A DNA stretch of 51,778 nucleotides, taken from assembly GCA_018241625.1 (NCBI GenBank), contig JAFEDM010000515.1, forward strand, positions 1-51,778, in the 5' to 3' direction. Numbering within the stretch: position 1 is the first letter of the stretch; the number at the start of each line of letters is the position of its first letter. The notes under the pieces are model-generated. The model saw nothing but the letters and a program-made list of their open reading frames with translations. It was not told where the DNA came from and did not search any database. Positions 3,099 to 48,631 of this stretch are shown here, piece after piece. Position numbers and translations under genes: made by a program. The DNA comes from Pseudomonadota bacterium (GTDB lineage Bacteria > Pseudomonadota > Alphaproteobacteria > Caulobacterales > Caulobacteraceae).

Positions 3099-3112
3099 TG
3101 GTATCGTTTCCA
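3099..3112. promoter_or_regulatory. Putative LacI operator (2 mismatches)
   Basis: TGGTATCGTTTCCA upstream of the esterase-lacI-hydrolase unit. Confidence 0.65.
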
Positions 3113-3172
3113 AACCTAAAGCGCTAAGTCATCCATCGGGCTGCAACGCCCACGCGCGCGAAGGGGATGGGG

Positions 3173-4285
3173 ATGAAAGTGCTGCGGCTCGGTTTGATCT
3201 CTCTAGCGGCGCTGGCGCTCGGCCCCGCGGCTCATGCCCAGTCGCTCGATGAGGCGCGACTGAAGCCGGCCTGGCGGGCGCTGGACAAGAACCACGACGG
3301 CAAGGTCACGCTGGATGAACTTCCGCCGATGCTGGCGATGGCGCTGAAGCTGCATGACTTCGACAAGGACGGCGCCATCTCCCTCGCCGAGTACGTCGAC
3401 TTCGACCTCGACCCCAATGCTGAGGGGCATTCCCTCCTGCCCGCCAATGTGAAAATGGCCGCCAACCTGCCCTACGCGGGGACGGCTGACCCGCGCCAGG
3501 CGCTGGACGTCTACCTGCCCAGGCAGCCGAGCCTCCGCGGTCCGCTGCCGGTGATCGCATATATTCACGGGGGCGGCTGGTCGACGGGCAGCAAGATGCT
3601 GGGCCGGAACCTGCTGGCGAAGATGGTCGACGGCGGGCGTTATGCGGGGGTTTCGATCGGCTACCGCCTGTCCTGGCAGGCGACCTGGCCGGCGCAGATC
3701 GACGACGCCAAGGCGGCGATCCGTTGGATCCGGGCGCACGCCAAGGACTACAATTTCGACCCGAACCGGATCTGCCTTTTCGGCGTCTCGTCGGGGGCGC
3801 ACATGGCGGTGAAGGTAGGCCTCACCAACGGCGTGGCTGCCGACGAAGGCAAGGTCGGCCCCAACCTGAAGCAGTCGAGCCGCGTCCAGTGCGTTATCGA
3901 CGAGCTTGGCCCGATGGACCTCCGCAATTCCGGTCCGGCCGGCGCTGCGAACCCCATAACCCAGTTGCTCGGCGGGACGTCGGCCGAAAAGCCGGAGCTG
4001 GCGCGCAGCGCTTCGCCGATCCTCGACGTTCACGCAAAGGCGCCGCCGATCCTGATCATCGCCGGCAACAAGGACCCCTTCGTTCCCTATCAGCAGTCGG
4101 TCGCCCTCGACGAGGCCCTGCGCAAGGCCGGCGCGCCCGTGGTGCTTTTCCAGACCGTGGACGGCGGCGGCCACGGCGACTTCGGCGCGGCCAAGCCGGT
4201 GGTCGAGGACCGGATGGTGCTGTTCCTTGAGCGGAACTTCTATGATCATTCCACCGCGGTGCCGACCGACACCTTGCACAGGTAG
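3173..4285 (+). CDS. Exported alpha/beta hydrolase (carbohydrate/acetyl esterase-like) with N-terminal EF-hand pair
   Basis: Signal peptide ending AHA; DKNHDGKVTLDE and DFDKDGAISLAE loops; HGGGW, GVSSG nucleophile, D(PFV) and GHG. Alternative start at 3167. Confidence 0.85.
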   Translation: MKVLRLGLISLAALALGPAAHAQSLDEARLKPAWRALDKNHDGKVTLDELPPMLAMALKLHDFDKDGAISLAEYVDFDLDPNAEGHSLLPANVKMAANLPYAGTADPRQALDVYLPRQPSLRGPLPVIAYIHGGGWSTGSKMLGRNLLAKMVDGGRYAGVSIGYRLSWQATWPAQIDDAKAAIRWIRAHAKDYNFDPNRICLFGVSSGAHMAVKVGLTNGVAADEGKVGPNLKQSSRVQCVIDELGPMDLRNSGPAGAANPITQLLGGTSAEKPELARSASPILDVHAKAPPILIIAGNKDPFVPYQQSVALDEALRKAGAPVVLFQTVDGGGHGDFGAAKPVVEDRMVLFLERNFYDHSTAVPTDTLHR

Positions 4286-4363
4286 CTGCGCTTCGGAGAC
4301 GTTGGCATAGAGTGGCGGAAGCCCGCGGCCCGCGCCGACGAACCGACCAGCAAGAGGTACGAT

Positions 4364-5380
4364 TTGCCCCGCCCCATCGGAATTCATGACGTCGCGAAAA
4401 AGGCCGGGGTCGCGGCCTCCTCAGTGTCCCGGGTGATCTCGGGGCACCCGAACGTCAGCCCGGAGATGAAGGAGCGTGTGCTCACCGCGGCCGCCGCGCT
4501 CGGCTACGAGCCCAATATCCTGGCGCAAGGTCTCCGCCGGGGCTCCACCCAGACGATCGGCCTAGTCGTGCCGGATATCTCGAACCCCCTGTTCTCGGAG
4601 CTCGTGTTCCACGCGGAGAACACCCTGAACGCGGCGGGCTACGCCCTGCTGATCGCCAACTCACAAGGCGTTCCGGGGAGCGACATCACCCACATCAAGC
4701 TCCTTCGCCAACGGGTCGATGGCTTCCTGCTCTCGCTCTCCGACGAGACGGACGCGCAGACGGCGTCCGCGCTGAAGGAACTCGACAAGCCGTTCGTCCT
4801 GCTGGACCGCGACATCGCCAAGACCAAGTACTCCTCCGTCCTCTGGGACCACGGCTCGGGCATCAAGGCCGCGGCCACCCACCTGGCCGATCTGGGGCAC
4901 CGGCGCATCGCGATGATCGACGGCAACCCGCGGGTACATCCGACGCGCGCGAGGTCCCTGGCCCTGCAGACCGCCTTCGAAGACCGGCCTGAAGTCCATC
5001 TCGCGAAGTACGACGGCGCCTTCACCCCCGACCACGGCGAGCGGACAACCGACTTCCTGTTGGGCGGCGAAAACGCCCCCACCGCCATCATCGCTGGCTC
5101 CGTCCAGATCCTCATCGGCGTGTTGCGGTGCCTGCGCCGGCGCAAGCTGCGGGTGCCGGACGACCTGTCTCTGGTCACCATCGACCACGCGCCTATGCTC
5201 GAGTTCATCGACCCGCCGCTGGCGACCATCGACCGCGACTGCGGCGACTTCGGCCGCGCGGCGGCGCAACTGCTGCTGGACCGGCTTGAGGGCCGCACCA
5301 CCCGGAAGCGCCCGTTGCCGGTCAACTTCGATCCGAAATCCAGCTGCGCCCCGCCAATGGACAAGGCCAGGTCAGCATAA
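4364..5380 (+). CDS. LacI family transcriptional regulator
   Basis: IHDVAKKAGVAASSVSRVI HTH, YEPNILAQGL hinge, periplasmic-binding-protein-like effector domain; TTG start. Confidence 0.95.
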   Translation: MPRPIGIHDVAKKAGVAASSVSRVISGHPNVSPEMKERVLTAAAALGYEPNILAQGLRRGSTQTIGLVVPDISNPLFSELVFHAENTLNAAGYALLIANSQGVPGSDITHIKLLRQRVDGFLLSLSDETDAQTASALKELDKPFVLLDRDIAKTKYSSVLWDHGSGIKAAATHLADLGHRRIAMIDGNPRVHPTRARSLALQTAFEDRPEVHLAKYDGAFTPDHGERTTDFLLGGENAPTAIIAGSVQILIGVLRCLRRRKLRVPDDLSLVTIDHAPMLEFIDPPLATIDRDCGDFGRAAAQLLLDRLEGRTTRKRPLPVNFDPKSSCAPPMDKARSA

Positions 5381-5431: not shown

Positions 5432-6322
5432 ATGGCGGGACGATCGAGCGCGGCCCATTGGACGGCGGCAACTCTCATCCTGTTGTCCCTGCTGGTCTTG
5501 CCCGCGGCCACAAGGGCCGGCCAGTACGTCACCGTCGATCCCAAGGCCAAGGTCCGCCTGTACTACGAGGCCTCTGGCTCCGGCGATCCCGTCGTCTTCG
5601 TGCCGGGCTGGACCATGACGTCGCGCTATTTCAGCCGTCAGGTCGACTATTTCCAGGGCTCGAAATCCAGCCGCTTCATCGTCTTCGACCCCAGAGCGCA
5701 CGGCCGCTCCACCAAGACCCTGGAGGGCGCCAACTATGTGCAGCATGCCCACGATCTGAAGCTGTTCCTCGACAAGCTGGGCCTGAAGCACGTCGTGCTC
5801 GGGGGCTGGTCCTGGGGCATGGACACGATCTACGCCTACCTGTCGATCTACGGCTCCGACAACGTCAGAGCCGTCGTCGACATCGACCAGACACCCAACC
5901 CGCTCGCGTCAGGTGAAGGCGCCTGGAAGGACGGCAATCTGACCGAGGTGAAGTCGTTCTTCGATGACTTCACCAGGAACCGGGCGGCAACGACCCGGGG
6001 CTTCATCCCGACCATGTTCAGCAAGCCGCCCTCCACCGCCGACCAGCGGTGGATGGCGTCGGAGGTCATGATGACGCCGGAGATCGTGGCTGACCTGCTC
6101 TATTACGACGGCTGGATGTTCGACAGCACCGAACTGGTGCGGAAGCTCAAGGTCCCGCAGCTCTATTTCGTCAGCGAGGGCAATGCGGCGGCGGCGGCGG
6201 CCTTCATCGCCCGCAACTGCCCTGACGCGGAACTGGTCCCCCTGGGCGAGCACGCCATGTTCTACGACCACGCTTCGGTCTTCAACGACCGCCTGGCGAG
6301 ATTCCTGGCCGAGCACCCCTAG
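5432..6322 (+). CDS. Exported alpha/beta hydrolase (non-heme haloperoxidase/arylesterase-like)
   Basis: Signal peptide; PGW, DPRAHGRS, GWSWG nucleophile elbow and C-terminal His (GEHA). Confidence 0.85.
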   Translation: MAGRSSAAHWTAATLILLSLLVLPAATRAGQYVTVDPKAKVRLYYEASGSGDPVVFVPGWTMTSRYFSRQVDYFQGSKSSRFIVFDPRAHGRSTKTLEGANYVQHAHDLKLFLDKLGLKHVVLGGWSWGMDTIYAYLSIYGSDNVRAVVDIDQTPNPLASGEGAWKDGNLTEVKSFFDDFTRNRAATTRGFIPTMFSKPPSTADQRWMASEVMMTPEIVADLLYYDGWMFDSTELVRKLKVPQLYFVSEGNAAAAAAFIARNCPDAELVPLGEHAMFYDHASVFNDRLARFLAEHP

Positions 6323-6343: not shown

Positions 6344-7933
6344 CTACGGGTCCAGGTAGACCGTCTCCAGATAGAGGTGCCGGGTCGGGGTCGAGCGGTA
6401 GCCGTGCACTCGGTCGCGCATGGCGATCGGCGCATCGACGAAGACCAGGTAGAGCTGCGCCGCATCGTCCCAGCCTATCTTCTGCATGTGAGCGAACAGC
6501 TCCGCGCGGCGTGCGCCCGAGGCCCGCTTCGCCTCTGCGAAGAGGCGGACCATCTCGGGATTGTGGTAGTCGGTCCAGGCCGAGTCGAAGCCAAAGCCCT
6601 CCGCGCAGCAGAATTCCCAGTACCCTTCCGGATCGATCTGATCGGCGCTGGTCGACGCAAGGAACATCTCGAACCGTTTGGCGCCTCGAAGCTGGAACTT
6701 GGTGCCGGCCTCCACCTGCAGGATCTTCACAGCGATCCCGATCTTCGCGAGCTGGTATTTGACGATCGTCGCGATCCCGCCCTCAACCGGATCGCCCGAG
6801 GCGATCAGCAGCTCCGTCTGGAAGCCGTGTGGATAGCGGCTCTGCGCCATCAACGCCCGGGCCTTGCCCAGATCGTAGGCGTAGGGCGCCTGCGGCGCGT
6901 AGAATTTCGTGCGCGGCGCTTCGGAATCCATGGCCTTGGCCGTGCCGAAGAACACGACCTTGGCGATCGCCTGCTTATCGATCGCGTAGTTCATCGCCTT
7001 CCTGACGTTCAGGTCCGCGAACGCCGGCTGGGTGACCCGCTGCAGCCGGATCAAGGACCCGGCCAGCGTCGGGAACACCTGGATCCTGATGTGCGGTGCG
7101 CGGCCCAGCTCCACCAACTGTGAAGGCAACGGGTCCTGAACGACATCGACCTGCCCGGCCCGCAGCTGGATCGCCTGGGTGGCGGAATCGCCGACCACCG
7201 TCAGCCGGACCTCGTCGACGCAGGGATAGGGCTGGTTCCAGTAGTACGGGTTCCTGACCAGGCGGGCGCCCTGACCCTTCCGCCAACTGGCCAGGACGAA
7301 CGGACCGGCCGACACCGGGGCGTTCATCATCGCCTGCGGCTCGCTCCCTTTGGGATAGATGCCGACGCCGGGGAGTTGCTGCTCCACAAAGGCGGGATAG
7401 CCGTGGGCCAGCTTGATCACGAAGGTCGCCGGGTCTGGCGCCTCGAACACCGCCTGGGGAATGCGGCTCTTCAGCGTGCTTCTGGGATCGGCGTAGTTGC
7501 GGCTGAAGCTGTCCAGCACATCGGCCGAGGTCAGGGCGGCGCCGTTAGAGAACCGGAGCCCCGGCCGCAAGTGGAAGGTGAACACCGTCGCATCGCCGTT
7601 GGCGTCCCAGGACGTGGCCGCCATCCCCTCGACCGCGGTCGCGTCGATGTTGTTGCGCACCAGCGGCAGGTTGACGAGCGGCCAGGCCGAAATGCTGGGA
7701 TTGTCGAGGTTGTAGTACCAGTCGGTGACGTCGGCGCTGCGCGCGAAGGTCAGGACGCCGCCCACCTTCGGACATTGATCGGAGGGCTGCCGGTTGGACG
7801 GGTCGGCGCCCTTGGCCTGATGCGCGGCGAAGGGCGCGGCCGTGTCGCGATGATGTCCGACAGACCGCAGGGCCAACCAGGCCAGGACGGCGATCATGGC
7901 CACCGCCAGGACGAGAAGCGTTCGCTTGGCCAT
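6344..7933 (-). CDS. ABC transporter substrate-binding protein, family 5 (peptide/nickel/opine type)
   Basis: N-terminal hydrophobic segment; FTFHLRPGLRFSNG, GPFVL..W, RNPYYW and NVRKAMNYAID family-5 motifs. Confidence 0.92.
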   Translation of the reverse strand: MAKRTLLVLAVAMIAVLAWLALRSVGHHRDTAAPFAAHQAKGADPSNRQPSDQCPKVGGVLTFARSADVTDWYYNLDNPSISAWPLVNLPLVRNNIDATAVEGMAATSWDANGDATVFTFHLRPGLRFSNGAALTSADVLDSFSRNYADPRSTLKSRIPQAVFEAPDPATFVIKLAHGYPAFVEQQLPGVGIYPKGSEPQAMMNAPVSAGPFVLASWRKGQGARLVRNPYYWNQPYPCVDEVRLTVVGDSATQAIQLRAGQVDVVQDPLPSQLVELGRAPHIRIQVFPTLAGSLIRLQRVTQPAFADLNVRKAMNYAIDKQAIAKVVFFGTAKAMDSEAPRTKFYAPQAPYAYDLGKARALMAQSRYPHGFQTELLIASGDPVEGGIATIVKYQLAKIGIAVKILQVEAGTKFQLRGAKRFEMFLASTSADQIDPEGYWEFCCAEGFGFDSAWTDYHNPEMVRLFAEAKRASGARRAELFAHMQKIGWDDAAQLYLVFVDAPIAMRDRVHGYRSTPTRHLYLETVYLDP

Positions 7934-7941: not shown

Positions 7942-8934
7942 TCAGACGCCCGGACCGGGAACGGGCGCGTCCTCGCGCAGGAGCCCGCGATGTTTCAGCG
8001 CCGTCCAGAGCTCCGCGGGGATGGAGAGGGCGGCGTTGGCCAAAGTGTCGTCGACCTCCTCGGGCGTCCGCGCGCCGACGACCACAGACGTCACCGCCGG
8101 ATGGGCTGCGGCGAATTGCAGGGCGGCCGCGCGGAGCGGCGTCTCGAAGTCCCGACAGACGGCTGCCAGCGCCTTCGCCTTGCCGAGGATTTCCGCGCCG
8201 GCCGGGGCGTAGTCGTACATCGCGCCTTCCGCCGGAGCGATCAGCAACCCCGAATTGAACACGCCGCCCGCGATGACCGAGATGCCGCGTTCGGCGACCA
8301 GGGGGAACAGCTCGTCGAGCGCGGACTGGTCGAGCAGGGTGTAGCGACCGGCCAACAGGAAGACGTCGAAATCGGCCTCCTGGGCGAACCGGACCAGCGG
8401 TTCGACGCCGTTCATCCCGACGCCCAGCGCTCCGAAGTGGCCGGCCTCCCGCATCGCCCGCAGTTTCGGGTAGGCCATCCGCAGCACGTCCGCATGATGG
8501 TCGTCCGGGTCGTGGACCAGGACGACGTCTGGCGAGCCCAACCCCAGTCGCATCTGACTGTCGTGGATCGAAGCCTCCACGCCGTCCGCCGAGAAGTCGA
8601 ACACAGAATGGAAGGGCTGCGCCGCCTTGAAGAAGGCAACCTCATCCGGTCCAGCGACGAGGCGGCGGCCCGTCTTGGTGGAGATCCGCAATTCGGCGCG
8701 CGGCTTGCCCGCCAGCGCCTCGCCGAGGAAGAGCTCGGCCTGCCCGGCGCCGTAGAACGGCGCGGTGTCGAAGTAGCGGATGCCACGATCCCACGCGCGC
8801 CGGATCGTGCCGATCCCGGTCTCGCGACTAACCGCCTCCGGCCAGCCCCCCAGCGGCGCAGTACCGAGCCCCAGCCGCGAAATCTCGACCTGGGTGGCGC
8901 CGATGCGACGGGTCTCGGACGGGTCAAACGGCAT
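7942..8934 (-). CDS. Aldo/keto reductase, D-threo-aldose 1-dehydrogenase (L-fucose/L-galactose dehydrogenase)-like
   Basis: LGLGTAPLG, YFDTAPFYG, STKTG, VHDPD and LLAGRYTLLDQ; start set at MPFDP, downstream of the promoter/operator. Confidence 0.88.
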   Translation of the reverse strand: MPFDPSETRRIGATQVEISRLGLGTAPLGGWPEAVSRETGIGTIRRAWDRGIRYFDTAPFYGAGQAELFLGEALAGKPRAELRISTKTGRRLVAGPDEVAFFKAAQPFHSVFDFSADGVEASIHDSQMRLGLGSPDVVLVHDPDDHHADVLRMAYPKLRAMREAGHFGALGVGMNGVEPLVRFAQEADFDVFLLAGRYTLLDQSALDELFPLVAERGISVIAGGVFNSGLLIAPAEGAMYDYAPAGAEILGKAKALAAVCRDFETPLRAAALQFAAAHPAVTSVVVGARTPEEVDDTLANAALSIPAELWTALKHRGLLREDAPVPGPGV

Positions 8935-9027
8935 TGGGTATCCCGACAGGTCCGGCGCGAGCGCCCCGCCCGGACATGCATACATTCACGTTGCGGCTTC
9001 CGCCGCCACGCACTACCGTCGCCGCAA

Positions 9028-9043
9028 GTGGAAACGTTTCCAC
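9028..9043. promoter_or_regulatory. LacI operator, perfect palindrome in a divergent promoter region
   Basis: GTGGAAACGTTTCCAC; minus-strand TTGACA at 9065-9070. Confidence 0.85.
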
Positions 9044-9127: not shown

Positions 9128-10582
9128 GTGAGTTCGAGACGCGACGTCATGAGCCAGGCGGCTGCGTTGGTCGTAGGCGCATCGGCGCTGTCCGGTTCGG
9201 CGGCGAGGGGTTCGACGACGGTGGCCGGGTCACGCCCCAGGATCACCGGCCCCATCACCGGTGGCGCTCACGGGCGGCCGTTCGCGGCCTACTTCGGCGA
9301 CATCTCGGCTGTCGGCTATGTTGAGGAAGAGTACTTCATCGAAGGAGAAGCCGCAGCCTTCAAGGTCCTCGGCGACATCCCCCTCGACGGCCGGCTAGAA
9401 ACCGCGAAGGTCGGAGCCACCCCCTACAAGACACGACTACTCGTCCGGCGTCCCGCCGACCCGGCGAAATTCAACGGCACGGTCCTCGTCGAGTGGATCA
9501 ACGTCAGCGCCGGCTACGACATCGCCTGCGCCGATCCGGTGGGGCTCTATGAGGCGGGCTTCGCTTGGGTTTCCGTCTCCGCCCAGCGGGTCGGCGTCCA
9601 CGGCTACGAGGCGGCGTTCCACCCACCGCTGCCGACGGGCAAGGGCCTGGTGCAGTGGGACGCCGCCCGCTACGGCAGCCTCTCCGTCCCCGGGGACTCG
9701 CTGTCCTATGACATCTTCACCCAGGGCGCCCGCGCGGTCGGCCCCGATCGCCTGAGCGAGGTGGATCCGATGGGCGGCCTCAAGGTCCGCAAGCTCATCG
9801 CCATCGGCGCCTCGCAGTCCGGCTATCGCCTGGTCAGCTACATCAACGGCGTCCAGAAGACCCATGCCGTCTTCGACGCCCTGATGCCGCTAGTGTTCGC
9901 CGGCCGCTCGGCGCCCTGGGTCGATGCTCGGCCGAACAGCCAGCTTTCGGCCCCTCAGATGAGGATCCGCGACGATCTCGCCGCTAAGGTCTTTGGCCTG
10001 GATTCCGAGACCGAGGCGCCGGCCTATCTGAAGGTCCGCCAGCCCGATACCGACCGCTTCCGCTACTGGGAGATCGCCGGCGCCTCGCATGGGGGGACCG
10101 CGCAGGAGGCCCGGATCAGGCTTATCACCGACCGCGACGGCGTCACCGCGCCCGACGACGGCCCACCCATCCATACCAGCGACGTGCTGTGGGTCCCGAC
10201 CTGCGACGCCGCCATCCGCCACGTCCAAAAGTGGATCCACGGCGGCGCGCCGCCGCCCGTGCAGCCGAAGATCGCGTTCGACGCCACCGGTCCGACGCCG
10301 ACGATCAAGCGCGATCGCCTCGGCAACGCGGTCGGAGGTGTTCGCCTGCCCGACCTCGAGGTTCCGACGGCGCAGTCTGTTGGAAGCACCAAGGACTCGG
10401 CTTGGCTGGGTCAGACCTTCCCGTTCACGCCGGCGCAGCTGCGGAGCCTATATCCGACCCACCAGGACTACGTCGTCCAGGTGAGGGCGGCGGCCGACCG
10501 CGCGCTGAAGGCCGGCGTCATCCTGCCCTATCGCGCCGCGCAGTACGTCACGCAGGCGGAGGCCGCCGAGATCCCCGCCTAG
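9128..10582 (+). CDS. Tat-exported alpha/beta hydrolase domain protein
   Basis: GTG start gives SSRRDVM plus a hydrophobic Tat-like signal; VEEEYFIEG, RRP..FNGTVLVEW.NVS, GASQS nucleophile and EIAGASH. Confidence 0.82.
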   Translation: MSSRRDVMSQAAALVVGASALSGSAARGSTTVAGSRPRITGPITGGAHGRPFAAYFGDISAVGYVEEEYFIEGEAAAFKVLGDIPLDGRLETAKVGATPYKTRLLVRRPADPAKFNGTVLVEWINVSAGYDIACADPVGLYEAGFAWVSVSAQRVGVHGYEAAFHPPLPTGKGLVQWDAARYGSLSVPGDSLSYDIFTQGARAVGPDRLSEVDPMGGLKVRKLIAIGASQSGYRLVSYINGVQKTHAVFDALMPLVFAGRSAPWVDARPNSQLSAPQMRIRDDLAAKVFGLDSETEAPAYLKVRQPDTDRFRYWEIAGASHGGTAQEARIRLITDRDGVTAPDDGPPIHTSDVLWVPTCDAAIRHVQKWIHGGAPPPVQPKIAFDATGPTPTIKRDRLGNAVGGVRLPDLEVPTAQSVGSTKDSAWLGQTFPFTPAQLRSLYPTHQDYVVQVRAAADRALKAGVILPYRAAQYVTQAEAAEIPA

Positions 10583-10617: not shown

Positions 10618-11580
10618 GTGAAGACAGCCTCCGCCAAACCCCGCGCGAAACCTCGGATCGGTCGACAGGACCTGGCGGCGATCCTGTCCATTGGGCTGCT
10701 TTCGGTCGCTCCGATGTCCGCCCACGCTCAGGACGCGGCGAAGCCGCATGGCCTGCGTATCTTCATCTCGGTCGACATGGAGGGCGTGACCGGCGTGGTA
10801 ATGCCCAACCAGCTGACGCCCACCGGCAACGAATACGAGCGCTACCGGCTCATCATGACCAACGAGGTCAATGCGGCGATCACCGGCGCGCGGAAGGCTG
10901 GCGCGACCGAATTCGTCATCGCCGATGGGCACGGAAACTTCCAGAACCTGCTGCTCGACAGCCTTCCGAAGGACGCCAAGGTCGTGCGAGGTGAACCCCG
11001 GCCCCTGATCATGATGGACGGCGTCCAGGACGGGACATTCGATGGCGCCATGTTCATCGGCTATCACGCCAGCTCCGTCAGCCTTGCGGGGGTGCGAGCG
11101 CACTCCTTCTCCAGCGCCGCCATCTCCGAACTGAAGGTCAACGGCGTCCCTGTTTCCGAAGGCTATTGGAACGCCGCGGTGGCCGGCGACTTCAACGTCC
11201 CTGTCATCCTGGCGACCGGCGATGACGTGGCCGTCGCCGAGCTGAAGCCTGTCGCCAAGAGCGCCGAATTGGTCGCGGTGAAGAAGGCCCTGGGCTTCCA
11301 TGCGGCCGAGACTCTCACCCCGGCGGCGGCGAACGAGCTGATCGAGGCGGCATCGGAACGGGCGGTGCGCAATTTGCCCGCCGACAAACCCTTCCGCATC
11401 AAGGGGCCGGTCACCGTCGACCTGACGTTCCACTTCTACCAGCCTGCGGAACTTCTAACCTGGCTGCCGAGTGTGCAACGGACAGGCGCGCGGTCGGTCC
11501 GCTTCACCTCCGGCAACATGGTCGATGCGACCAGGTTCCTGGCCTTCATCTCCAGCTACAATTTCGGCCTGCAGCCCTGA
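10618..11580 (+). CDS. M55 family zinc D-aminopeptidase (DppA-like) with signal peptide
   Basis: IFISVDMEG, DGHG, IGYHA, AHSFS and SEG metal/catalytic motifs of M55; N-terminal signal ending AHA. Confidence 0.9.
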   Translation: MKTASAKPRAKPRIGRQDLAAILSIGLLSVAPMSAHAQDAAKPHGLRIFISVDMEGVTGVVMPNQLTPTGNEYERYRLIMTNEVNAAITGARKAGATEFVIADGHGNFQNLLLDSLPKDAKVVRGEPRPLIMMDGVQDGTFDGAMFIGYHASSVSLAGVRAHSFSSAAISELKVNGVPVSEGYWNAAVAGDFNVPVILATGDDVAVAELKPVAKSAELVAVKKALGFHAAETLTPAAANELIEAASERAVRNLPADKPFRIKGPVTVDLTFHFYQPAELLTWLPSVQRTGARSVRFTSGNMVDATRFLAFISSYNFGLQP

Positions 11581-11600: not shown

Positions 11601-11641
11601 TTGACATCGCCCCTGGCGTTCTGAAGATGGAAACGTTTCCA
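11601..11641 (+). promoter_or_regulatory. Sigma70-type promoter with LacI operator
   Basis: TTGACA at 11601-11606; TGGAAACGTTTCCA at 11628-11641. Confidence 0.85.
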
Positions 11642-11666: not shown

Positions 11667-13340
11667 TTGTCCATCAGCCGTAGAAACGTGATCGGCGCGA
11701 CCGCCACCCTGGCCGCCGCCCTGGCGACCGAAGCCGGCCCGGCGATCGCCTCGACCAACAAGTCGGGCGGCGGCGCCCGGCACGATGCGATGCTGAAGAC
11801 GCTTGAGGCCTATGCGGAGCAACACCGCGCCAACTGGGGCCTACCGGGGATGACCATCGCCGTGGTCGATCGCCAGGGCTTCACCGGCTACATCCGCTCC
11901 GGCTGGGCGGACATCGACAAGAAGATCCCGGTGGGCCCGGATCATCTGTGGCAGGTCGGCTCGATCACCAAGATGATGGTCGCGCTGACGCTCTGGTCGA
12001 TGTTCGACGAGGGCAAGCTGTCGCCCGACACGCCCTTCCTCAAGGCGCTCCCTGGCATCAAGGTGACGAACGGCGAAGGCATCCGCCTGCAGCACCTGCT
12101 CAACCACACCTCCGGCATGCCGAACATCGCGCCCTATGTTTCGGAGCTGGGCGGCCTGTGGTCGAGCTACACCCCCGGGACGCATTGGAACTACTGCAAC
12201 ATCGGCTACGCGCTGCTGGGCCTGATCATCGCCGAGCATGACGGCCGGACCTTCGAGGCGGCGGTCAAGGCGCGCGTCTTCGACAAGCTGGGGATGAAGG
12301 ACTCGGTCGGCGCGATCCGCGGCAGCGACCGCCACCGCTATCCCGTCGGCTACCTGCCCTACGTCACCGACCGTATGACGCTGCGGCCCAGCGAGGTCGC
12401 GCCTGCGGCCTGGGCCGATGTCGACAACGCCGCCGGCTCCAACGCGGCGACCGCCGCCGACATGGCGAAGTTCCTTCGCTTCCTGCTGGCGCTGGCTGAA
12501 GGCAAGGGGTCGGGCGTCATCAGCGATGCGAGCGCGGTCAAGTTCCTGGCCAACCCTGCCGAGGCCCCGGCCGACGGCAAGGGCGTCACCTACGGCAACG
12601 GCATCGGCCACTATCCGATCGATGGACGGACCTACTTCCACCACACCGGCGGCATGGTCTCGGTGGTGTCCTCGCTGCACGTTGACCCGGACGCTGGCGT
12701 CGCGGCCTTCGTCTCCACCAACATCGGCTACCTCGCCTCGAACTACCGCCCGAAGGACGTGTCCCTGTACGCCTGCAATCTTCTGCGGTGTCTGAACGCC
12801 GGCACGCCCGCGCCCGCACCCGCGCCGCCGCGCCCCGTGGTCGCGAATCCGAAGCCGTTCGCGGGCGTCTACACCGCCGCCAACGGAGACCGGATCGAAG
12901 TCATCCCCGGCGCCGACAAGCTCACCCTGCGCCATCGCGGCGCGGACAGTCGCATGGAGGACTACGGCGGCGGCATGTTCGCCTGCGAAGCCCTCGAATT
13001 CCAGATCACCGGCCTGTTGTTCGAAGCCGAAGGCGGCAAGGCGGTGCGCGCCTGGGCGGGCGACGTGGAATACGTCGCCAACCCTGCGGCGGGGTACAAG
13101 CCGAAGGCGTCGCCGGAGCTCGCGCTCCTCGCCGGTCGGTATGACGGCACGCGGATCTACGCACGCGACGGCGCGCTCTGGCGTGGCAATCGCGAGAAGC
13201 TGATCCCGATCGGCAACGGGGATTATCGCGCCGGGCCGGAATGGTCGCCGGAACGGGTGCGCTTCGACACCCCCTTCTTTGGGCGGCCGCAGCGGATCCT
13301 CAACAACGGCGGGCCCGGCTGGCGGGTGGCGTTCGACTAG
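11667..13340 (+). CDS. Tat-exported serine hydrolase, beta-lactamase/D-peptidase (S12) family
   Basis: SRRNVIG Tat signal; SxxK (GSITK), YxN (YCN), LLNHTSG and HTGG. Confidence 0.9.
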   Translation: MSISRRNVIGATATLAAALATEAGPAIASTNKSGGGARHDAMLKTLEAYAEQHRANWGLPGMTIAVVDRQGFTGYIRSGWADIDKKIPVGPDHLWQVGSITKMMVALTLWSMFDEGKLSPDTPFLKALPGIKVTNGEGIRLQHLLNHTSGMPNIAPYVSELGGLWSSYTPGTHWNYCNIGYALLGLIIAEHDGRTFEAAVKARVFDKLGMKDSVGAIRGSDRHRYPVGYLPYVTDRMTLRPSEVAPAAWADVDNAAGSNAATAADMAKFLRFLLALAEGKGSGVISDASAVKFLANPAEAPADGKGVTYGNGIGHYPIDGRTYFHHTGGMVSVVSSLHVDPDAGVAAFVSTNIGYLASNYRPKDVSLYACNLLRCLNAGTPAPAPAPPRPVVANPKPFAGVYTAANGDRIEVIPGADKLTLRHRGADSRMEDYGGGMFACEALEFQITGLLFEAEGGKAVRAWAGDVEYVANPAAGYKPKASPELALLAGRYDGTRIYARDGALWRGNREKLIPIGNGDYRAGPEWSPERVRFDTPFFGRPQRILNNGGPGWRVAFD

Positions 13341-36067: not shown

Positions 36068-36094
36068 CTGGACGCTCACAAAATGGGTTTTCAT

Positions 36095-41369: not shown

Positions 41370-41411
41370 TGGAAACGTTTCCAGTTTTCGCGTAACAGTT
41401 CGCCCTGTCAA
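41370..41411 (-). promoter_or_regulatory. Promoter with LacI operator for the DHDPS-AKR-lactonase operon
   Basis: TGGAAACGTTTCCA at 41370-41383; minus-strand TTGACA at 41406-41411. Confidence 0.85.
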
Positions 41412-41598: not shown

Positions 41599-42783
41599 AT
41601 GGGCCTCAGCAAGATCAGGCATGTCCGGGCCTACATCGTGCGCGGCGGCGGGGCCGACTACGCCGATCAGCCCGGGTATCACTGGATCGACGATCACATC
41701 GCCAGCCCGATGGCCAAGTATCCCGGTTATCGGCAGAGCCGGCAGAAGTTCGGCCTGGGCGTCCTCGGCACCTTGGTGGTTGAGATCGAGGCGGAAAATG
41801 GCGCCATCGGCTTTGCCGTCACCACCGGTGGGGAACCGGCCGCCTGGATCGTCGAAAAGCACCTGAGCCGGTTCCTCGAAGGCGCCGATCCCGGGCACGT
41901 CGAGAAGATCTGGGACCAGATGTTCCTTTCGACCCTGCATTACGGCCGCAAGGGCCTGGTCATCAATGTGATCAGCGTCATCGATCTGGCGCTCTGGGAT
42001 CTGATCGGCAAGCTGCGCGACGAACCCGTGCATGAGCTGCTGGGCGGTGCGGTGCGCGACGAAATCCAGTTCTATGCGACCGGTGTTCGGCCCGACATCG
42101 CCAAGGACCTCGGCTTCATCGGCGGCAAACTGCCCCTGAAGCACGGACCGGCCGAGGGTGACGCCGGGCTTGCTCAGAACCTTGCGGCGCTCGCCGACAT
42201 GCGCGCGCGGGTCGGGGACGACTTCTGGCTGATGCTCGACTGCTGGATGAGTCTCGACCTGGACTACGCGCGTCGCCTGTCGATAGGCGCCGCAGACCTG
42301 GGCCTGAAGTGGATCGAGGAGGCGTTTCCGCCGGACGATTACTGGAGTTACCGCGATCTGCGCGCTCAGGCGCCGCGGGGCATGATGGTCACCACGGGCG
42401 AGCACGAGGCCACCCGCTGGGGCTTCCGGATGCTCCTGGAGATGGAGTGCTGCGACATCATCCAGCCGGATGTCGGCTGGTGCGGCGGCCTCACAGAGCT
42501 GATCAAGATCTCAGCCCTGGCCGACGCCCGCTCGGTGCTGTGCATCCCGCATGGATCGTCGGTCTACAGCTACCACTTCGTCATCACCCGCCAGAACAGC
42601 CCGTTCGCCGAGTTCCTGATGATGGCGCCGGAGGCCGACCAGATGCAGCCGATGTTCGCCCCGCAGTTGCTGGGCGAACCAGTGCCGCAGAACGGGCGGA
42701 TGCGTGTCTCGGCGCTCGACAAGCCCGGCTTCGGCGTCGAGCTCAACGCCGACATCAAGCTCACCCGCCCATATGACCATTGA
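41599..42783 (+). CDS. rhmD: L-rhamnonate dehydratase
   Basis: [57 protein letters not shown] and [10 protein letters not shown]; start MGLSK. Confidence 0.93.
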
Positions 42784-42798
42784 AGAGCTGGCGTCCTC

Positions 42799-43671
42799 AT
42801 GAAGTTGTGTCGTTTCGGACCGCGCGGGGCGGAAAAGCCCGGCCTCTTCGACAAGGCCGGACGGTTGCGCGACCTGTCCGGCGTCATTCCTGACCTTGGA
42901 CCCGAAGAGCTTGCGCCGGCCAGCCTGCGGCGGCTGCGCGGCCTGGACGCGCAGAGCCTTCCTGAGGTCGGCGGCGAGGTCCGGCTAGGCGTGCCCGTGG
43001 CGCGCATCCCGCAGATCGTCGCCATCGGCCTCAACTACGAAGATCACGCCATCGAGGCGAACCTGCCGATCCCGGCCGAACCCGCGACCTTCCTGAAGTC
43101 CATCTCCAGCCTGAACGGTCCCTACGACGAGGTCATGCTGCCGAAGGGATCCGAGCATTCGGATTGGGAACTCGAACTCGGCGTCGTGATCGGCAAGACC
43201 GCGCGCCATGTGCGGGAGGCCGAAGCCTCGGCCTACGTGGCCGGCTATTGCGTGGTCAACGACCTCTCGGAGCGCTTCAACCAGAAGCAGCGCGGCAGCC
43301 AATGGTCGAAGGGTAAGAGCGCCGACACCTTCTGCCCTGTCGGTCCCTGGCTGGTGACGGCCGACGAGCTTACCACCCCGAACGACCTCGACATGTACCT
43401 CTACCTGAACGGCGTGCGCCGCCAGACGGGCAACACGCGCACGATGATCTTCAACGTGCCGGAGCTCCTGTCTTATGTGAGCCGCTTCATCACCCTGCAT
43501 TCCGGCGACCTGGTGATCACCGGCACCCCGCCGGGCGTCGGCGAAGGCGTCAAGCCCGACCCGGTCTTCCTGAAGGCCGGCGACGAACTGCGGTTCGGCA
43601 TCGAGCAACTGGGGGAGCAGACCCACAAGATCGTCGATTGGCGGCCTATTGCGCCCGAGGAATGCCCATGA
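42799..43671 (+). CDS. Fumarylacetoacetate hydrolase family, 2,4-diketo-3-deoxy-hexonate hydrolase-like (LRA6-type)
   Basis: IGLNYEDH, DWELELG, NDLSER, QWSKGKS.DTF and TGTPPGVG; lies between rhmD and an SDR. Confidence 0.88.
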   Translation: MKLCRFGPRGAEKPGLFDKAGRLRDLSGVIPDLGPEELAPASLRRLRGLDAQSLPEVGGEVRLGVPVARIPQIVAIGLNYEDHAIEANLPIPAEPATFLKSISSLNGPYDEVMLPKGSEHSDWELELGVVIGKTARHVREAEASAYVAGYCVVNDLSERFNQKQRGSQWSKGKSADTFCPVGPWLVTADELTTPNDLDMYLYLNGVRRQTGNTRTMIFNVPELLSYVSRFITLHSGDLVITGTPPGVGEGVKPDPVFLKAGDELRFGIEQLGEQTHKIVDWRPIAPEECP

Positions 43672-44417
43672 GCCCCTACAAGGGCCGCTTCGCCGGCCGA
43701 ACAGCGGTGCTGACCGGCGGCGCGTCGGGGCTCGCGCGCGAGACCGCGCGGCGGATCGTCGAGGAAGGCGGCCGCGTCTGCCTGTGGGACCTCGATCTGG
43801 ATGCGCTGGAGGCGGCCCGGCGGGATGTCGGCGCGAGCCACGTGGTCGCCGTCGACGTCTCCGATTTCGAAGCGGTGCGCGCCGCGGCCGCGGAGTCCCA
43901 CAAGGCGCTCGGCGCCATCGACATCCTGGTGGCCTCGGCCGGTATCACCGGCGCGACCGGCCCGGTCCATCAGTTCCCGGTCGAGAGCTGGCGGCGGACC
44001 ATCGACGTCAACCTCAACGGGCTGTTCTACTGCTGCCGTGAGGTCGTCCCCTACATGCTGACCAAGGGGTACGGGCGCATCGTCAACGTCTCCTCCGTCG
44101 CCGGCAAGGAAGGCAACCCGAACGCCTCGGCCTACTCCGCCTCGAAGGCCGCGGTGCTGGGCTTCACGAAGTCCCTGGGCAAAGAGCTGGCCGCCGCCGG
44201 TATACTCGCCAACGCCATCACACCCGCGACATTCGAGAGCCCGATCCTGGAGCAGCTTCCGGCGAGCCAGATCGAATATATGCGCTCACGAATCCCCATG
44301 GGCAGGCTGGGCGAGGTGCAGGAAAGCGCGGCGATGATCTGCTTCATGGCCAGTGAGGACTGCAGCTTCACGACGGCTGCGACCTTCGACACTTCTGGCG
44401 GGCGGACGACCTACTAG
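43668..44417 (+). CDS. SDR, 2-keto-3-deoxy-L-rhamnonate 4-dehydrogenase-like (LRA5-type)
   Basis: TGGASGLA, SAGITG, SVAGKEGNPNASAYSASK and FDTSGGRTTY; ATGA-coupled to the FAH gene. Confidence 0.85.
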   Translation: MSPYKGRFAGRTAVLTGGASGLARETARRIVEEGGRVCLWDLDLDALEAARRDVGASHVVAVDVSDFEAVRAAAAESHKALGAIDILVASAGITGATGPVHQFPVESWRRTIDVNLNGLFYCCREVVPYMLTKGYGRIVNVSSVAGKEGNPNASAYSASKAAVLGFTKSLGKELAAAGILANAITPATFESPILEQLPASQIEYMRSRIPMGRLGEVQESAAMICFMASEDCSFTTAATFDTSGGRTTY

Positions 44418-44457
44418 GGTTCGGCAACCGACCCGCGCGGCCACAGGGTAACCGTCC

Positions 44458-45432
44458 ATGAAACCGCAGATCGATCCGATGTCGCTGGTGGCCCCGGAAT
44501 TCCGTGAAGCCGCAATCCAGATCGCGGCTCAGGAAGCCACCAGTCCGCCGGCTGTCCGCTCGAGCATCGAGCAGATCCGCAAGTCGCCGTTCTTCGCCAA
44601 CAGCGAACCGCTACCGGATGTCCCGCATTTCGAGCACCTGGCGCCGGTTGGAGATGGCCACCCGGACGTCGCGCTCTACGTCATCAACGCCAGGTCCGGC
44701 GACAGGCGGCCGGCCATCCTGCACACCCACGGCGGCGGCCATATCGCCGGAACGGCGAAGAGCCAGGTCCCTCGGCTGCAGGTGATCGCCCAAGAGCTCG
44801 ATTGCGTCATCGTCACCGTTGAATACCGGCTGGCGCCCGAGGCCACCTATGAAGCCTCGATCGAGGACAATTACGCCGGCCTGCGGTGGCTGAACGTCCA
44901 TGCGGACGAGCTCGGGGTCGATCCCAAGCGGATCGCGGTCTTCGGCGAGAGCGCCGGTGGCGGCCACGCGGCGATCCTGGCCAATCTGGCCACCGACCGC
45001 GGGGAATTTCCCGTCGCCTTCCAGTGCCTGATCTACCCGATGCTGGACGACCGGACGGGCTCGACCCGGAGCGTGCCGGACCACATCGGGCGCCTGGCCT
45101 GGGACGCCGACTGGAACGTCCTGGGCTGGGCCTGCTTCCTGGGCCGCCCACCTGGGGTGGAGGGCGTGCCCGCCATCGCGGTCCCGAGCCGACGGAAGGA
45201 TCTGCGGAACCTGCCGCCCGCCTTCATCGGCGTGGGCGCCATCGACCTCTTCGTCGAAGAGGACATCGACTATGCCGCGCGGCTCATCCAGGCCGGGGTC
45301 CCCACCGAGCTGCTCGTGACGCCCGGCGGCTTCCATGGGTTCGACATCTTCGCGCCGGAGAGCGCCACGGCCCAAAGCTTCGAACGCGCCAAGCTCAACG
45401 CGCTCCGGCGCGGCCTTGGGATCGACGCCTAA
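44458..45432 (+). CDS. Cytoplasmic HSL-family esterase (alpha/beta hydrolase)
   Basis: HGGGH, EYRLAPE, GESAGG, YPMLDDR and FHGF; no signal peptide. Confidence 0.9.
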   Translation: MKPQIDPMSLVAPEFREAAIQIAAQEATSPPAVRSSIEQIRKSPFFANSEPLPDVPHFEHLAPVGDGHPDVALYVINARSGDRRPAILHTHGGGHIAGTAKSQVPRLQVIAQELDCVIVTVEYRLAPEATYEASIEDNYAGLRWLNVHADELGVDPKRIAVFGESAGGGHAAILANLATDRGEFPVAFQCLIYPMLDDRTGSTRSVPDHIGRLAWDADWNVLGWACFLGRPPGVEGVPAIAVPSRRKDLRNLPPAFIGVGAIDLFVEEDIDYAARLIQAGVPTELLVTPGGFHGFDIFAPESATAQSFERAKLNALRRGLGIDA

Positions 45433-47318: not shown

Positions 47319-47333
47319 CTGCCGATCCCCAGC

Positions 47334-48506
47334 TCAGCCATAGACGACCTTGCCGCTCTCGTGCCGGGCGAGCCAATCCCAGTTGATGGTGACGCCGAGG
47401 CCGGGGCCGTCCGGGACGGGCACGCAGCCGTGTTCGTCGATCGCCTCGAGGTCGTCGGAATAGGTCTCGCCATAGACCGGGACCTGGGCGTGGCGGCCCG
47501 GGACCTTGGGGTGGACGAGGCCCAGCTCGTAGTAGTTGGTGTTGCGGATCGCCGCCATGCACTGGCGCGTCGCCGCGCCGGGGCCGTGCAGCTCCACGTC
47601 GAGGCCGAAGCCTTCCGCCGCATGGGCGAGCTTCATGACGCCGGTGATGCCACCTTCGGAATGGATGCCGGCGCGGACGAAGTCCGTGCCTTCGGCGAGT
47701 ATGCCGTCGACCTTCACCTCTATGCCGCGGATGTGCTCGCCCAGCAGGATCGGCGTCTTGATGATCTGGCGCAGCTTCTTGTGGGCGAAGGCCGAGTGCC
47801 CGCCGTCCATATAGGGGTCCTCGTACCAGAAGTAGTTGGCCTCATCGCACGCGCGGCCCACCCGCAGGGCGTCGGCCCATGTGCGGTATTCGCAAGCCGG
47901 GTCGATCATCAGGTTCATTTCGTCGCCGACCGCCTTGCGCGTCGCCAGCACCGTGGCGGCCTCGCGCTCGATCGGGCCATTGCCCCAGCCGTGGATCTTG
48001 AAGGCCGGATAGCCCAGCTCGCGGCATTGCACCGCAAAGTCGGCGAAGGCCTCCGGTGAATCGAGGCCGCCATTCTCGTCCCCGTGCAGCGTCGAGGCGT
48101 AGGCCGGCAGGGTCTTGCGCCAGCCACCCAGGAGCTCATGGACCGGGACGCCGTAGGCCTTGCCCGCAATGTCCCAGAGCGCGCAGTCGATGGGCGCCAG
48201 GCCATAGCCGTCGATCTGGCGCAGCGCGCGCTTGATGTCGTTCCAGATGCGCTCGCGCTCCAGCGCGTTCCGGCCGATCAGATAGTGCGCCACCATCGCC
48301 ACCTGGGCGGCCCAGACGCCGCCCATGGCGCCGATGTACTCGCCGGTGATCCCGGCCTCCGTCTCGATGGTCAGCGCGTACCAGACCTCGTTGCAGATCG
48401 CGCCCTTCAGATAGACCTGATTGAAGCCGTTGTAGTCGGACCCCATCTCGCGAAACGTCCAATTGTACTGACGAACCGTCAGCCGCTTGATGCGAAGATC
48501 CTTCAT
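47334..48506 (-). CDS. Mandelate racemase/muconate lactonizing enzyme family protein (acid-sugar dehydratase-like)
   Basis: DCALWDIAGK, PAYAST, FKIHGW, MIDPAC, WYEDP, LGEH, ELHG and GPGLGV; start MKDLR. Confidence 0.88.
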   Translation of the reverse strand: MKDLRIKRLTVRQYNWTFREMGSDYNGFNQVYLKGAICNEVWYALTIETEAGITGEYIGAMGGVWAAQVAMVAHYLIGRNALERERIWNDIKRALRQIDGYGLAPIDCALWDIAGKAYGVPVHELLGGWRKTLPAYASTLHGDENGGLDSPEAFADFAVQCRELGYPAFKIHGWGNGPIEREAATVLATRKAVGDEMNLMIDPACEYRTWADALRVGRACDEANYFWYEDPYMDGGHSAFAHKKLRQIIKTPILLGEHIRGIEVKVDGILAEGTDFVRAGIHSEGGITGVMKLAHAAEGFGLDVELHGPGAATRQCMAAIRNTNYYELGLVHPKVPGRHAQVPVYGETYSDDLEAIDEHGCVPVPDGPGLGVTINWDWLARHESGKVVYG

Positions 48507-48589
48507 CCCGTCCTCGTTGGACGCTTCGGCGAGGACACACGCAGACCGGGTCCGTCGCGGCGCCATTCGCCCTGAAGCGTGAAAACTCC

Positions 48590-48631
48590 TGGAAACGTTT
48601 CCACTGTCGGGGGGGCGCCCGCGGATGTCAA
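48590..48631 (-). promoter_or_regulatory. Promoter with LacI operator for the enolase-DUF885 operon
   Basis: TGGAAACGTTTCCA at 48590-48603; minus-strand TTGACA at 48626-48631. Confidence 0.85.

Follow-up and report, generated by a model that had tools for sequence, protein, structure and literature searches.

A conserved operator-marked island in Caulobacteraceae that joins peptidases, a peptide-type importer and L-fucose/L-rhamnose breakdown genes around a SelA-like PLP enzyme

The window analyzed here is a whole stretch of 51,778 nucleotides from a Caulobacteraceae assembly (GCA_018241625.1, contig JAFEDM010000515.1, positions 1 to 51,778), and its host genome (G000) is 4.3 Mb. This window brings together enzymes that cut peptides, an importer of the peptide type, and genes for breaking down fucose and rhamnose; these 37 genes are a real catabolic island, marked by operators and kept almost whole in two other genomes—a congener (G061) and a member of the Hyphomonadaceae (G062). 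The features are as follows:

2-556, after E1: E2, cut by the contig end
553..2925, minus: E1, single-chain 2-oxoacid (pyruvate-type) dehydrogenase; LacI site 180 bp upstream, IclR-like boxes upstream
3099..3112: operator 1, 2 mismatches, between E1 and esterase 1; conserved in G061
3167..4285, plus: esterase 1 (BD-FAE), signal-peptide-like N-terminus
4364..5380, plus: LacI-family repressor
5432..6322, plus: Abhydrolase_1 alpha/beta hydrolase, signal-peptide-like N-terminus
6344..7933, minus: family-5 solute-binding protein (SBP5), of a small clade travelling with SelA1
7942..8985, minus: AKR1, 39% to AKR2
9029..9042: operator 2, perfect, between AKR1 and Abh10
9149..10582, plus: Abhydrolase_10 (Abh10, PF20091), by family match
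10618..11580, plus: M55 D-aminopeptidase-family protein, by family match
11628..11641: operator 3, perfect
11667..13340, plus: S12 serine hydrolase; SxxK, YxN, and HTG motifs, twin-arginine N-terminus
13452-13766 and 13808-14137, minus: two RhaM-family mutarotases
14167..15279, minus: iron-containing alcohol dehydrogenase
15276..16115, minus: lactonase 1, L-fuconolactonase-like amidohydrolase
16116..17327, minus: SelA1, SelA/DgaE/Cap15-fold PLP enzyme, no signal peptide
17324..21171, minus: oppB-oppC-oppD-oppF, peptide-type ABC importer, overlapping into selA1
21260..21273: operator 4, 1 mismatch, upstream of oppB; position shared by G061, G062, and locus L083
21364..22344, minus: GguC/AraD1-family protein (458 bits, cut-off 340)
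22530..25868, minus: TonB-dependent receptor (TBDR)
26065..26078: operator 5, 2 mismatches, upstream of the TBDR; IclR-like box at 26004
26240..26761, plus: conserved 173-aa protein of no family
26986..28314, plus: SelA2, second SelA-like PLP enzyme, twin-arginine N-terminus
28457..29365, plus: IclR-family regulator; candidate box WTYCCACWNWGTGGRAW at 28409
29472..29485: operator 6, 1 mismatch; IclR-like boxes at 29480 and 29501
29531..31950, plus: a pair of M19 dipeptidase-family proteins, 76% alike, both with intact zinc ligands
31963..35232, plus: tricorn protease (S41)
35260..35997, minus: SDR1, L-2-keto-3-deoxyfuconate 4-dehydrogenase-like (8XWK, E 7e-84)
36083..37399, plus: L-fuconate dehydratase (FucD), E 4e-165 to 2HXT; IclR-like box at 36053, no LacI site
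37413..38459, plus: esterase 2 (HSL family), signal-peptide-like N-terminus
38466-39353, minus: lactonase 2
39383-40411, minus: AKR2, nearest solved relative L-galactose dehydrogenase
40416-41312, minus: DHDPS-family lyase
41370..41383: operator 7, perfect, between DHDPS and rhmD
Within 41599..45432, plus: L-rhamnonate dehydratase (RhmD), 2,4-diketo-3-deoxy acid hydrolase, SDR2, esterase 3
45429-47318, minus: DUF885, HExxPGH motif
47334-48506, minus: third enolase-family dehydratase
48590..48603: operator 8, perfect

The gene families named in an earlier note on this DNA were all recovered (M55, S12, two M19, tricorn, DUF885, two AKRs, two lactonases, two RhaM, DHDPS, TBDR, a Dpp-type ABC, and two SelA-like proteins); however, where that note counted a single dehydratase, the window has three of the enolase family. 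Additional genes are GguC (named by NCBIfam only), the iron-containing alcohol dehydrogenase, five alpha/beta hydrolases, and E1 and E2 (2-2925); these two face operator 1 and probably belong to the island, and E1 keeps the same place in G061. Three of the 42 window ORFs scanned, one of them a shadow frame, have no Pfam family. From oppB to rhaM2 the genes overlap or abut (gaps of -80 to +41 bp)—oppBCDF, SelA1, the lactonase, and both mutarotases form a single tightly packed operon. Both M19 copies have the five zinc ligands (HxD at 70-72, E191, H258, H279; list from PMC9305348) of an active dipeptidase as opposed to the non-hydrolytic PvdM type, and SelA2 is likely periplasmic given its twin-arginine N-terminus.

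The LacI-type palindrome TGGAAACGTTTCCA occurs at eight intergenic sites in the window, each within 2 mismatches (four perfect, two with 1, two with 2) and 32-222 bp from start codons. Outside the window, the rest of the 4.3 Mb genome has no site at 1 mismatch or fewer and three at 2 mismatches; 3.3 were expected genome-wide and 0.04 in the window. Nine matches to the 12-mer were observed, the ninth being inside rhmD, whereas shuffles averaged 1.37 and never exceeded 6. The shared operator previously proposed does precede peptidases and sugar-acid enzymes alike, but has no site at fucD/SDR1, selA2, or iclR, which instead have a second, IclR-like palindrome upstream (a motif picked by eye). The LacI-family repressor likely binds the palindrome, judging by sequence: it is found at 87% in G061, 70% in G062, and 44-45% in G465 (Solirubrobacteraceae, Actinomycetota), and repressor and sites co-occur in these three genomes and G000. 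Loci L003, L004, and L006 have neither LacI nor LacI-type sites. From the predicted sites, LacI and IclR would control the gene set jointly.

Peptidase and sugar genes are syntenic in relatives, in support of the earlier note, and stay together after rearrangement. G061 has 36 of the 37 genes (75-94%), colinear and with operators, lacking the M55 gene; being a congener, it is not independent evidence. G062 retains 35 of 37 (51-89%) in rearranged order and also with operators (six perfect 12-mers in 28 kb), and has an L-lactate dehydrogenase in place of the iron-containing alcohol dehydrogenase. What G061 and G062 add under operators is more of the same two kinds, peptidases and sugar-acid enzymes: G061 has M13, a third M19, FucU/RbsD, and a UxaA-like dehydratase, and G062 an S15-like peptidase. 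G465 carries an analogous set in ~45 kb with the same transporter, SelA1, and LacI: SBP5 at 41%, OppBCDF at 52-58% (versus 32-44% for the adjoining paralogous ABC), SelA1 at 53%, and two LacI with operator-like sites, along with M55, two S12, an esterase, RhaM (43%), two lactonases, two enolases, and PDH. G063, G469, and G465 yielded no FucD orthologue, and the G465 enolases are only 22-29% like those of the window, so the sugar differs there or is not required. L085 and G465 carry a Gfo/Idh/MocA oxidoreductase, which could release sugar by another route.

By sequence comparison, the sugar half of the island is the known non-phosphorylative L-fucose and L-rhamnose routes with the diketo-hydrolase branch (PMC11199699, PMC6336799; 8XWK is named in the former). 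The fucose set is present as L-fuconate dehydratase, L-KDF dehydrogenase, lactonase, mutarotase, and hydrolase, and the rhamnose set includes L-rhamnonate dehydratase at 720 bits (cut-off 393); the lactonases fall under their equivalog cut-off (214 and 99 vs 400) and the hydrolase just under its own (469 vs 500 bits). FucD and RhmD are firmly predicted and SDR2 is likely the L-KDR 4-dehydrogenase, while the AKR assignments are putative, AKR1 being a likely aldose 1-dehydrogenase. Lra1, the SDR-type L-rhamnose 1-dehydrogenase, is not in the best five matches of SDR1 or SDR2; because both resemble later steps, an AKR would have to act as the rhamnose dehydrogenase. Mutarotases together with neutral-aldonate dehydratases imply a free neutral aldose.

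The earlier note had pointed to a missing glycosidase. The absence itself holds—glycoside hydrolase, kinase, and isomerase families had no match among the 42 window ORFs scanned—but it is not distinctive: of the 18 other genomes of the family that bear fucD, 8 lack GH29 as well and 16 have no fucP scoring over cut-off. A search of G000 that covered GH29, GH95-N, GH106, and GH78 found none of the first three and only two weak partial matches to the last, and there are 10 sugar-transporter-family MFS matches; G062 has a GH29 on a different contig. The window has the TBDR, regulator, and inner-membrane transporter of a TBDR carbohydrate-utilisation (CUT/PUL-like) locus, and no linked glycoside hydrolase or lyase in its 42 ORFs.

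SelA1 keeps company with the transporter: oppF lies upstream in 14 of 17 loci with SelA1 at 55% or more, and of the remaining three, two lack upstream sequence. The solved relatives of SBP5 are only 17-28% identical, with peptides, glutathione, nickel, opines, and sialic acid as ligands. The pairing persists in loci without sugar genes, twice beside E1 (L004 and L156); no E1 was found at L003, L006, L088, L090, or L092. The occurrence of the ABC and SelA1 without sugar genes, with the commonness of fucD loci lacking GH29 or fucP, and with more distant SelA-like genes that neighbour peptide ABC, RidA, M81, and dipeptide epimerase genes, would fit looser co-regulation around a mixed resource: envelope debris rich in D-amino-acid peptides and 6-deoxy sugars. 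Free fucose and rhamnose would then be taken up by some general route and act as inducers of the regulon, and SelA1 would handle the peptide part as an ordinary β-hydroxy or D-amino-acid dehydratase. We regard this as unlikely, though a serious contender: selA1 shares an operon with lactonase and mutarotase genes that overlap or abut it and that follow it in all seven loci at 76% or more, the same mix surrounds the orthologous transporter in another phylum, and none of the three islands has a sugar permease.

The SelA/DgaE-like family, to which SelA1 belongs, has been assigned few reactions, and many of its homologues come from uncultured Chloroflexota and Actinomycetota. SelA1 has the PLP lysine K221, kept with D193, R276, and K279 in 116 of 116 sequences, and a SelA-type fold (a model of pLDDT 70 matched 7LC0 by Foldseek at E 5e-24). 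Its top sequence and fold match is DgaE, with Cap15 comparable (Cap15 vs DgaE: TM 0.73 vs 0.69; profile E 7.5e-79 vs 3.6e-80); both of these nearest folds act on β-hydroxy amino acids with sugar-like tails. Identification as DgaE was rejected: SelA1 scores 164.9 and 178.1 on NF047797 and TIGR01437, and SelA2 112.3 and 143.3, against cut-offs of 600 and 385.3. His162/163, termed strictly conserved in the DgaE paper, have no His counterpart at aligned positions 165-171 in the 22 sequences closest to SelA1, and the Arg301/332/346 phosphate cluster, placed there by docking, aligns to ~A336, L364, and H378 (counted by hand from the alignment and rechecked). Close by, R360 and R367 are conserved; these might serve to bind an anion. 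Selenocysteine synthase was also rejected (TIGR00474 gives SelA2 36 vs 267.9; SelA is absent from the best five matches of SelA1, which is 17-18% identical to SelA structures).

Since the phosphate-binding arginines are missing, the non-phosphorylated conjugate substrate suggested earlier is plausible. The route proposed with it fares less well; N-acyl amino sugars would be deacylated, oxidised by AKR and lactonase to 2-amino-aldonates, and deaminated DgaE-style to 2-keto-3-deoxy acids joining the fucose/rhamnose routes. In its favour are the DgaE match, two AKRs, two lactonases, and many amidases; the lack of kinases as well as phosphate arginines fits an unphosphorylated aminoaldonate, and L-rhamnosamine or 6-deoxy-L-talosamine would suit if the family prefers a D-type C2 as Cap15 does. 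However, the route is improbable because it would bypass FucD and RhmD, which are encoded and highly conserved (85-93%); the DgaE histidines are missing, L003, L004, and L006 have SelA1 and the transporter (66-72% identity) but neither an AKR nor a lactonase in the surrounding 10 kb, and no family of N-acetylhexosamine deacetylases was matched in the window ORF scans. Carbon–carbon chemistry on a sugar-tailed amino acid is far more remote: either Cap15-like (O2-dependent decarboxylation to an aldonamide, then amidase to aldonate) or retro-aldol (glycine plus aldose). Cap15 matches as well as DgaE does and amidase-type hydrolases abound, but a mutarotase, AKR, or lactonase would not be needed on the Cap15 route, SelA1 lacks the arginines common to Cap15 and DgaE, and we know of no abundant natural C-glycyl deoxyhexose.

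The reading we favour, at a probability of roughly 0.4, is that the island imports small amino-acid-linked sugars and that SelA1 frees the sugar by β-elimination, feeding the standard fucose/rhamnose pathways; that its substrate is O-glycosyl-Ser/Thr, possibly D-configured, is proposed just as tentatively. The TBDR would bring glycopeptide-like fragments into the periplasm, where tricorn, DUF885, the two M19, M55, S12, and esterases, if exported as predicted, would cut them back until a glycosyl-amino acid or a short peptide is left. The mix of M55, S12, and M19, the racemase of G062, and the D-amino-acid oxidase-like gene of G465 suggest D-residues. SBP5/OppBCDF would import the product, and SelA1 would eliminate the O-linked sugar, leaving free aldose, ammonia, and either pyruvate or 2-oxobutyrate. 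Mutarotases, AKRs, lactonases, FucD/RhmD, SDR1/SDR2, and the diketo-acid hydrolase would then yield pyruvate plus L-lactate along the known pathway, with the adjacent E1/E2 burning 2-oxo acids; E1 does not discriminate between readings, as sugar routes yield pyruvate too.

A literature search found no paper on an O-glycosyl-Ser/Thr lyase. It is doubtful, but conceivable, that SelA1 is the first catabolic PLP O-glycoside lyase, which with its dedicated family-5 transporter would strip 6-deoxyhexoses from Ser/Thr (possibly D-residues of non-ribosomal glycopeptides) independently of glycosidases, marking an unrecognised recycling of glycosylated, D-amino-acid-rich organic matter by uncultured bacteria of several phyla. 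If sugar is freed by elimination, glycosidase-based annotation would miss glycan breakdown capacity and SelA1 could serve as a deglycosylation tool; if the looser reading holds, this is still an undescribed regulon joining D-peptide and deoxy-sugar use. The clade is tractable—one binding protein, one PLP enzyme, and two repressors with predicted sites—and the products are limited to L-fucose- and L-rhamnose-type sugars because the end pathways are known.

Among known systems, Agrobacterium opine uptake likewise takes in conjugates via family-5 binding proteins, and its AgaA and MoaA are among the SBP5 matches. Salmonella fra and the Xanthomonas nix CUT locus are comparison loci of the sugar–amino-acid conjugate type, with TBDR, trimming enzymes, and fucose catabolism; the opine, fra, and nix loci use deglycases, kinases, oxidoreductases, or glycosidases, and those enzymes are not in the window. 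The DgaE system shares the PLP fold and the logic of a transporter and lyase feeding keto-deoxy-acid catabolism; in contrast, the island has no PTS or kinase, and SelA1 has an extra ~24-residue loop besides its lost residues and low family scores. Cap15, a PLP monooxygenase-decarboxylase (8T7J; PMC6384614, PMC6411801) which acts on a sugar-tailed β-hydroxy amino acid of D type, has the same fold at 28% identity, but is biosynthetic and keeps the arginines SelA1 lacks. LmbF (PMC11794154) offers related chemistry, PLP β-elimination freeing sugar from S-glycosyl-cysteine; it is S-linked and biosynthetic, and it is absent among the sequence or fold matches of SelA1. The L-fucose/L-rhamnose pathways (PMC11199699, PMC6336799) are matched step by step, from mutarotase, dehydrogenase, and lactonase through FucD or RhmD to the keto-deoxy acid 4-dehydrogenase and hydrolase; unlike them, the island, with no linked sugar ABC or fucP, joins both routes to peptidases, a peptide-type ABC, and PLP enzymes.

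The operator-marked set of 37 genes is a real and conserved island, undescribed in the literature searched. The window is one entire contig (C461) of a 4.31-Mb genome that is 99.4% complete, and its nearest named homologues belong to Phenylobacterium and Hyphomonadaceae, which makes Caulobacterales its probable order. Pfam and NCBIfam searches of 42 window ORFs bore out the gene list of the earlier note. The LacI-type palindrome TGGAAACGTTTCCA occurs at eight window sites at two mismatches or fewer, every one in an intergenic gap, at a distance of 32-222 bp from a start codon; elsewhere the genome holds none at one mismatch or fewer and three at two mismatches, in line with chance expectation (enrichment was also checked by a shuffle test). 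LacI regulons in other lineages appear in a rhamnose regulon survey (PMC3870299, excerpted text). A scan for sigma-70 promoters and terminators did no better than chance.

A second palindrome, picked by eye, has ten matches at three mismatches, eight of them intergenic, and stands upstream of E1 (a single-chain 2-oxoacid dehydrogenase), the TBDR, selA2, iclR, M19a and fucD/SDR1:

WTYCCACWNWGTGGRAW, IclR-like palindrome: window positions 2994-3030, 26004, 26859, 28409, 29480-29517 and 36053

This palindrome covers genes without a LacI site, is conserved in part—recurring at several of the genes just listed in the congener G061 and the Hyphomonadaceae genome G062—and is probably the site of the IclR. 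Upstream of M19a it abuts a LacI site, which suggests dual control there.

From oppB, C, D and F through selA1, lactonase 1 and Fe-ADH to the two mutarotases, neighbouring genes overlap or directly adjoin. G061 keeps 36 of the 37 genes in the same order; G062 keeps 35, rearranged, with operators upstream of the same kinds of genes, and three metagenome contigs (L081, L083, L085) carry the same blocks. In G465, a member of the Actinomycetota, the orthologous ABC importer, SelA1 and LacI form the core of an analogous island that spans about 45 kb; it also holds a mutarotase, lactonases, enolases, M55, S12, an esterase and PDH, with no glycosidase among the ORFs scanned. None of 12 other fucD loci of the family has SelA1, the ABC core, M55, M19 or tricorn. 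Set beside this linkage, loose co-regulation of the two halves is a rather doubtful account.

The island system is rare. The wide conservation across Caulobacterales that had been proposed did not appear in the genomes searched: 60 relatives had neither an orthologue of the LacI nor a cluster of operators. A SelA1 orthologue was found in one of 400 same-family genomes, SBP5 (the family-5 solute-binding protein) in none of 400 same-class genomes (three candidates scored per genome), and LacI in none of 400 further genomes from the phylum of G465. The SBP clade comprises 56 clusters, and there are about 20 LacI clusters at 60% or more; 11 of the 22 SBP clusters on contigs of at least 10 kb share an identical contig size with a SelA1 cluster among the SelA1 matches listed, an indirect sign of SBP-SelA1 association.

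GC content is 67.1% in the island versus 69.3% in the genome, a value equally low in 3 of 143 contigs of at least 10 kb. No tRNA was found, and plasmid homologues are distant and carry no matching island. Some way out from the G061 island, a phage-type integrase adjoining a dus gene lies on one side and a HipA/HipB pair on the other (L164:14763-16960, L161:426-2005), hinting that the island is mobile. Beyond the island, 48697-51698 holds a 187-aa ORF that fits no family, together with an indolepyruvate ferredoxin oxidoreductase-family gene cut by the contig end; the latter is absent from the G061 and G062 islands.

The sugar half follows known pathways. The gene at 36083 is an L-fuconate dehydratase (E 4e-165 to 2HXT), SDR1 matches 8XWK, an L-KDF 4-dehydrogenase (PMC11199699, in part), and the gene at 41599 is an L-rhamnonate dehydratase, followed by a diketo-acid hydrolase. 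Mutarotases, AKRs and lactonases, two of each, would complete the established routes that end in pyruvate and lactate (PMC11199699, PMC6336799, as excerpted); an L-lactate dehydrogenase in the G062 island fits a lactate-yielding route. Use of further sugars may explain the presence of a third enolase, a DHDPS-family lyase and GguC (accessible portion of PMC9795676). A literature search on GguC returned RNA-motif papers only. A haloarchaeal homologue of the third enolase (55%; L181:11989-24729) is clustered with an α-L-fucosidase, a rhamnose mutarotase and GH88, which supports a deoxy-sugar-acid role. Fe-ADH (14167-15279) scores 533 on the NCBIfam model for 4-hydroxybutyrate dehydrogenase, above its cut-off of 500, but comes after a lactonase and is replaced in G062 by the L-lactate dehydrogenase. 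Some family members cluster fucD with LysR, PhyH, Fe-ADH and a glutamine-synthetase-like gene, without a lactonase (L230:7742-14486, L236:8654-14763).

The peptide half carries signs of D-residues. M55, S12, tricorn and DUF885 keep the catalytic motifs typical of their families, and most peptide-half enzymes have signal-like N-termini (judged by eye). The M55 family label is D-aminopeptidase, S12 matches a D-Ala-D-Ala peptidase model, and bacterial M19 enzymes typically prefer D-residues. Both M19 proteins are likewise intact against a ligand list (PMC9305348, partial text). An extra amino-acid racemase adjoins selA2 in G062, between selA2 and iclR, and G465 has an extra D-amino-acid oxidase-like gene. 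SelA2 (26986-28314) has a twin-arginine N-terminus and may be a periplasmic PLP enzyme.

The reported lack of a glycosidase, kinase or isomerase held across the 42 ORFs (Pfam, NCBIfam), and neither Abh10 nor the 173-aa ORF gave any sign of a hidden glycosidase. Neither the window's genome nor G061 yielded GH29, GH95-N or GH106, and no fucP candidate scored above the cut-off in any of the three genomes that have the island. The lack of a glycosidase or permease was nevertheless rejected as weak proof of a conjugate after controls, because many other fucD-bearing relatives also lack them (GH29 absent from 8 of 18, fucP from 16 of 18). GH29 is present in 3 of the 12 other fucD loci (58 of 84 unassigned ORFs of at least 300 aa scanned). 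The Amadori compounds offered earlier as a substrate were discarded, as the window gave no match to families of SIS deglycases, kinases or fructosamine oxidases. Mycobacterial glycopeptidolipid is a lead: it contains D-residues, acetyl esters and 6-deoxy sugars, all matched by the island, but neither a demethylase nor a glycosidase is present.

SelA1 (16116-17327) has DgaE and Cap15 as its closest solved relatives, about equally. It departs from DgaE in its score and in lacking His162/163 and Arg301/332/346 (reference residues from the available part of PMC9529869), and deamination of a 2-amino aldonate, proposed for the PLP enzymes by the earlier note, appears improbable. A conserved insertion in SelA1, some 24 residues long, is missing from both relatives, and the loop at 245-270 is poorly predicted in the SelA1 model. 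Cap15 accepts the 6'R, D-type isomer only (PMC6384614, PMC6411801, in the text available). C-C chemistry is very improbable for SelA1.

Gene order suggests another reaction. In 14 of 17 loci (identity at least 55%) selA1 comes after oppF, whereas a lactonase follows selA1 in only seven, those at 76% identity or more; SelA1 therefore likely acts on the cargo of the transporter and not on an AKR product. The product would appear to include a small 2-oxo acid, since E1 accompanies selA1 both in L004 (Devosia), where the two are the module's sole enzyme genes, beside an Lrp regulator, and in L156, ordered selA1-M55-E1; the mutarotases and dehydratases in turn point to release of a free neutral aldose. 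Both products would arise by β-elimination from an O-glycosyl-Ser/Thr, our preferred reading of SelA1, to which we give a probability of roughly 0.4. Against this reading, FucD was not seen in several SelA1 genomes and structure comparison of the SBP was uninformative as to ligand. Neither this locus nor an O-glycosyl-Ser/Thr lyase was described in the open-access literature searched. In three lineages the single-chain E1 (about 790 aa; 553-2925, L004, L156), which scores below both aceE cut-offs, adjoins a SelA1 module; the island of G062 instead has a canonical aceEF-lpd cluster at its edge.

Related genes occur in other settings. Another 15 genomes of the family have SelA-like genes at 35-36%, which were set aside as a different system; in the seven regions examined they lie mostly beside PhyH (as in L206, L207 and L210) or unrelated genes. 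Many Chloroflexota genomes, including Dehalococcoidia (L022-L080), have SelA1 homologues at 34-45%, some in tandem and often adjoining Ldh_2, amidase or creatininase-family genes. G063 has the ABC-SelA1 module only; at 3-11 kb from its SBP there are genes for a LacI, a sugar ABC, an FGGY kinase and a protein resembling fuculose-phosphate aldolase, a proximity that may be chance:

G063 sugar-gene neighbours: L172:15227-20000 and L173:1-4303

In G065 (L176:5379-7847) the genes facing the SBP-ABC-SelA1 operon encode an RpiR regulator, a HAD phosphatase and a metallophosphoesterase, which suggests a phosphorylated or phosphodiester cargo in that genome.

Among known systems, LmbF provides a precedent for PLP β-elimination, although in the accessible text (PMC11794154) for S-linked substrates only. 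Whereas a TBDR-linked conjugate-utilisation locus is defined by its glycosidase and the island has none, the island would work in a like manner.
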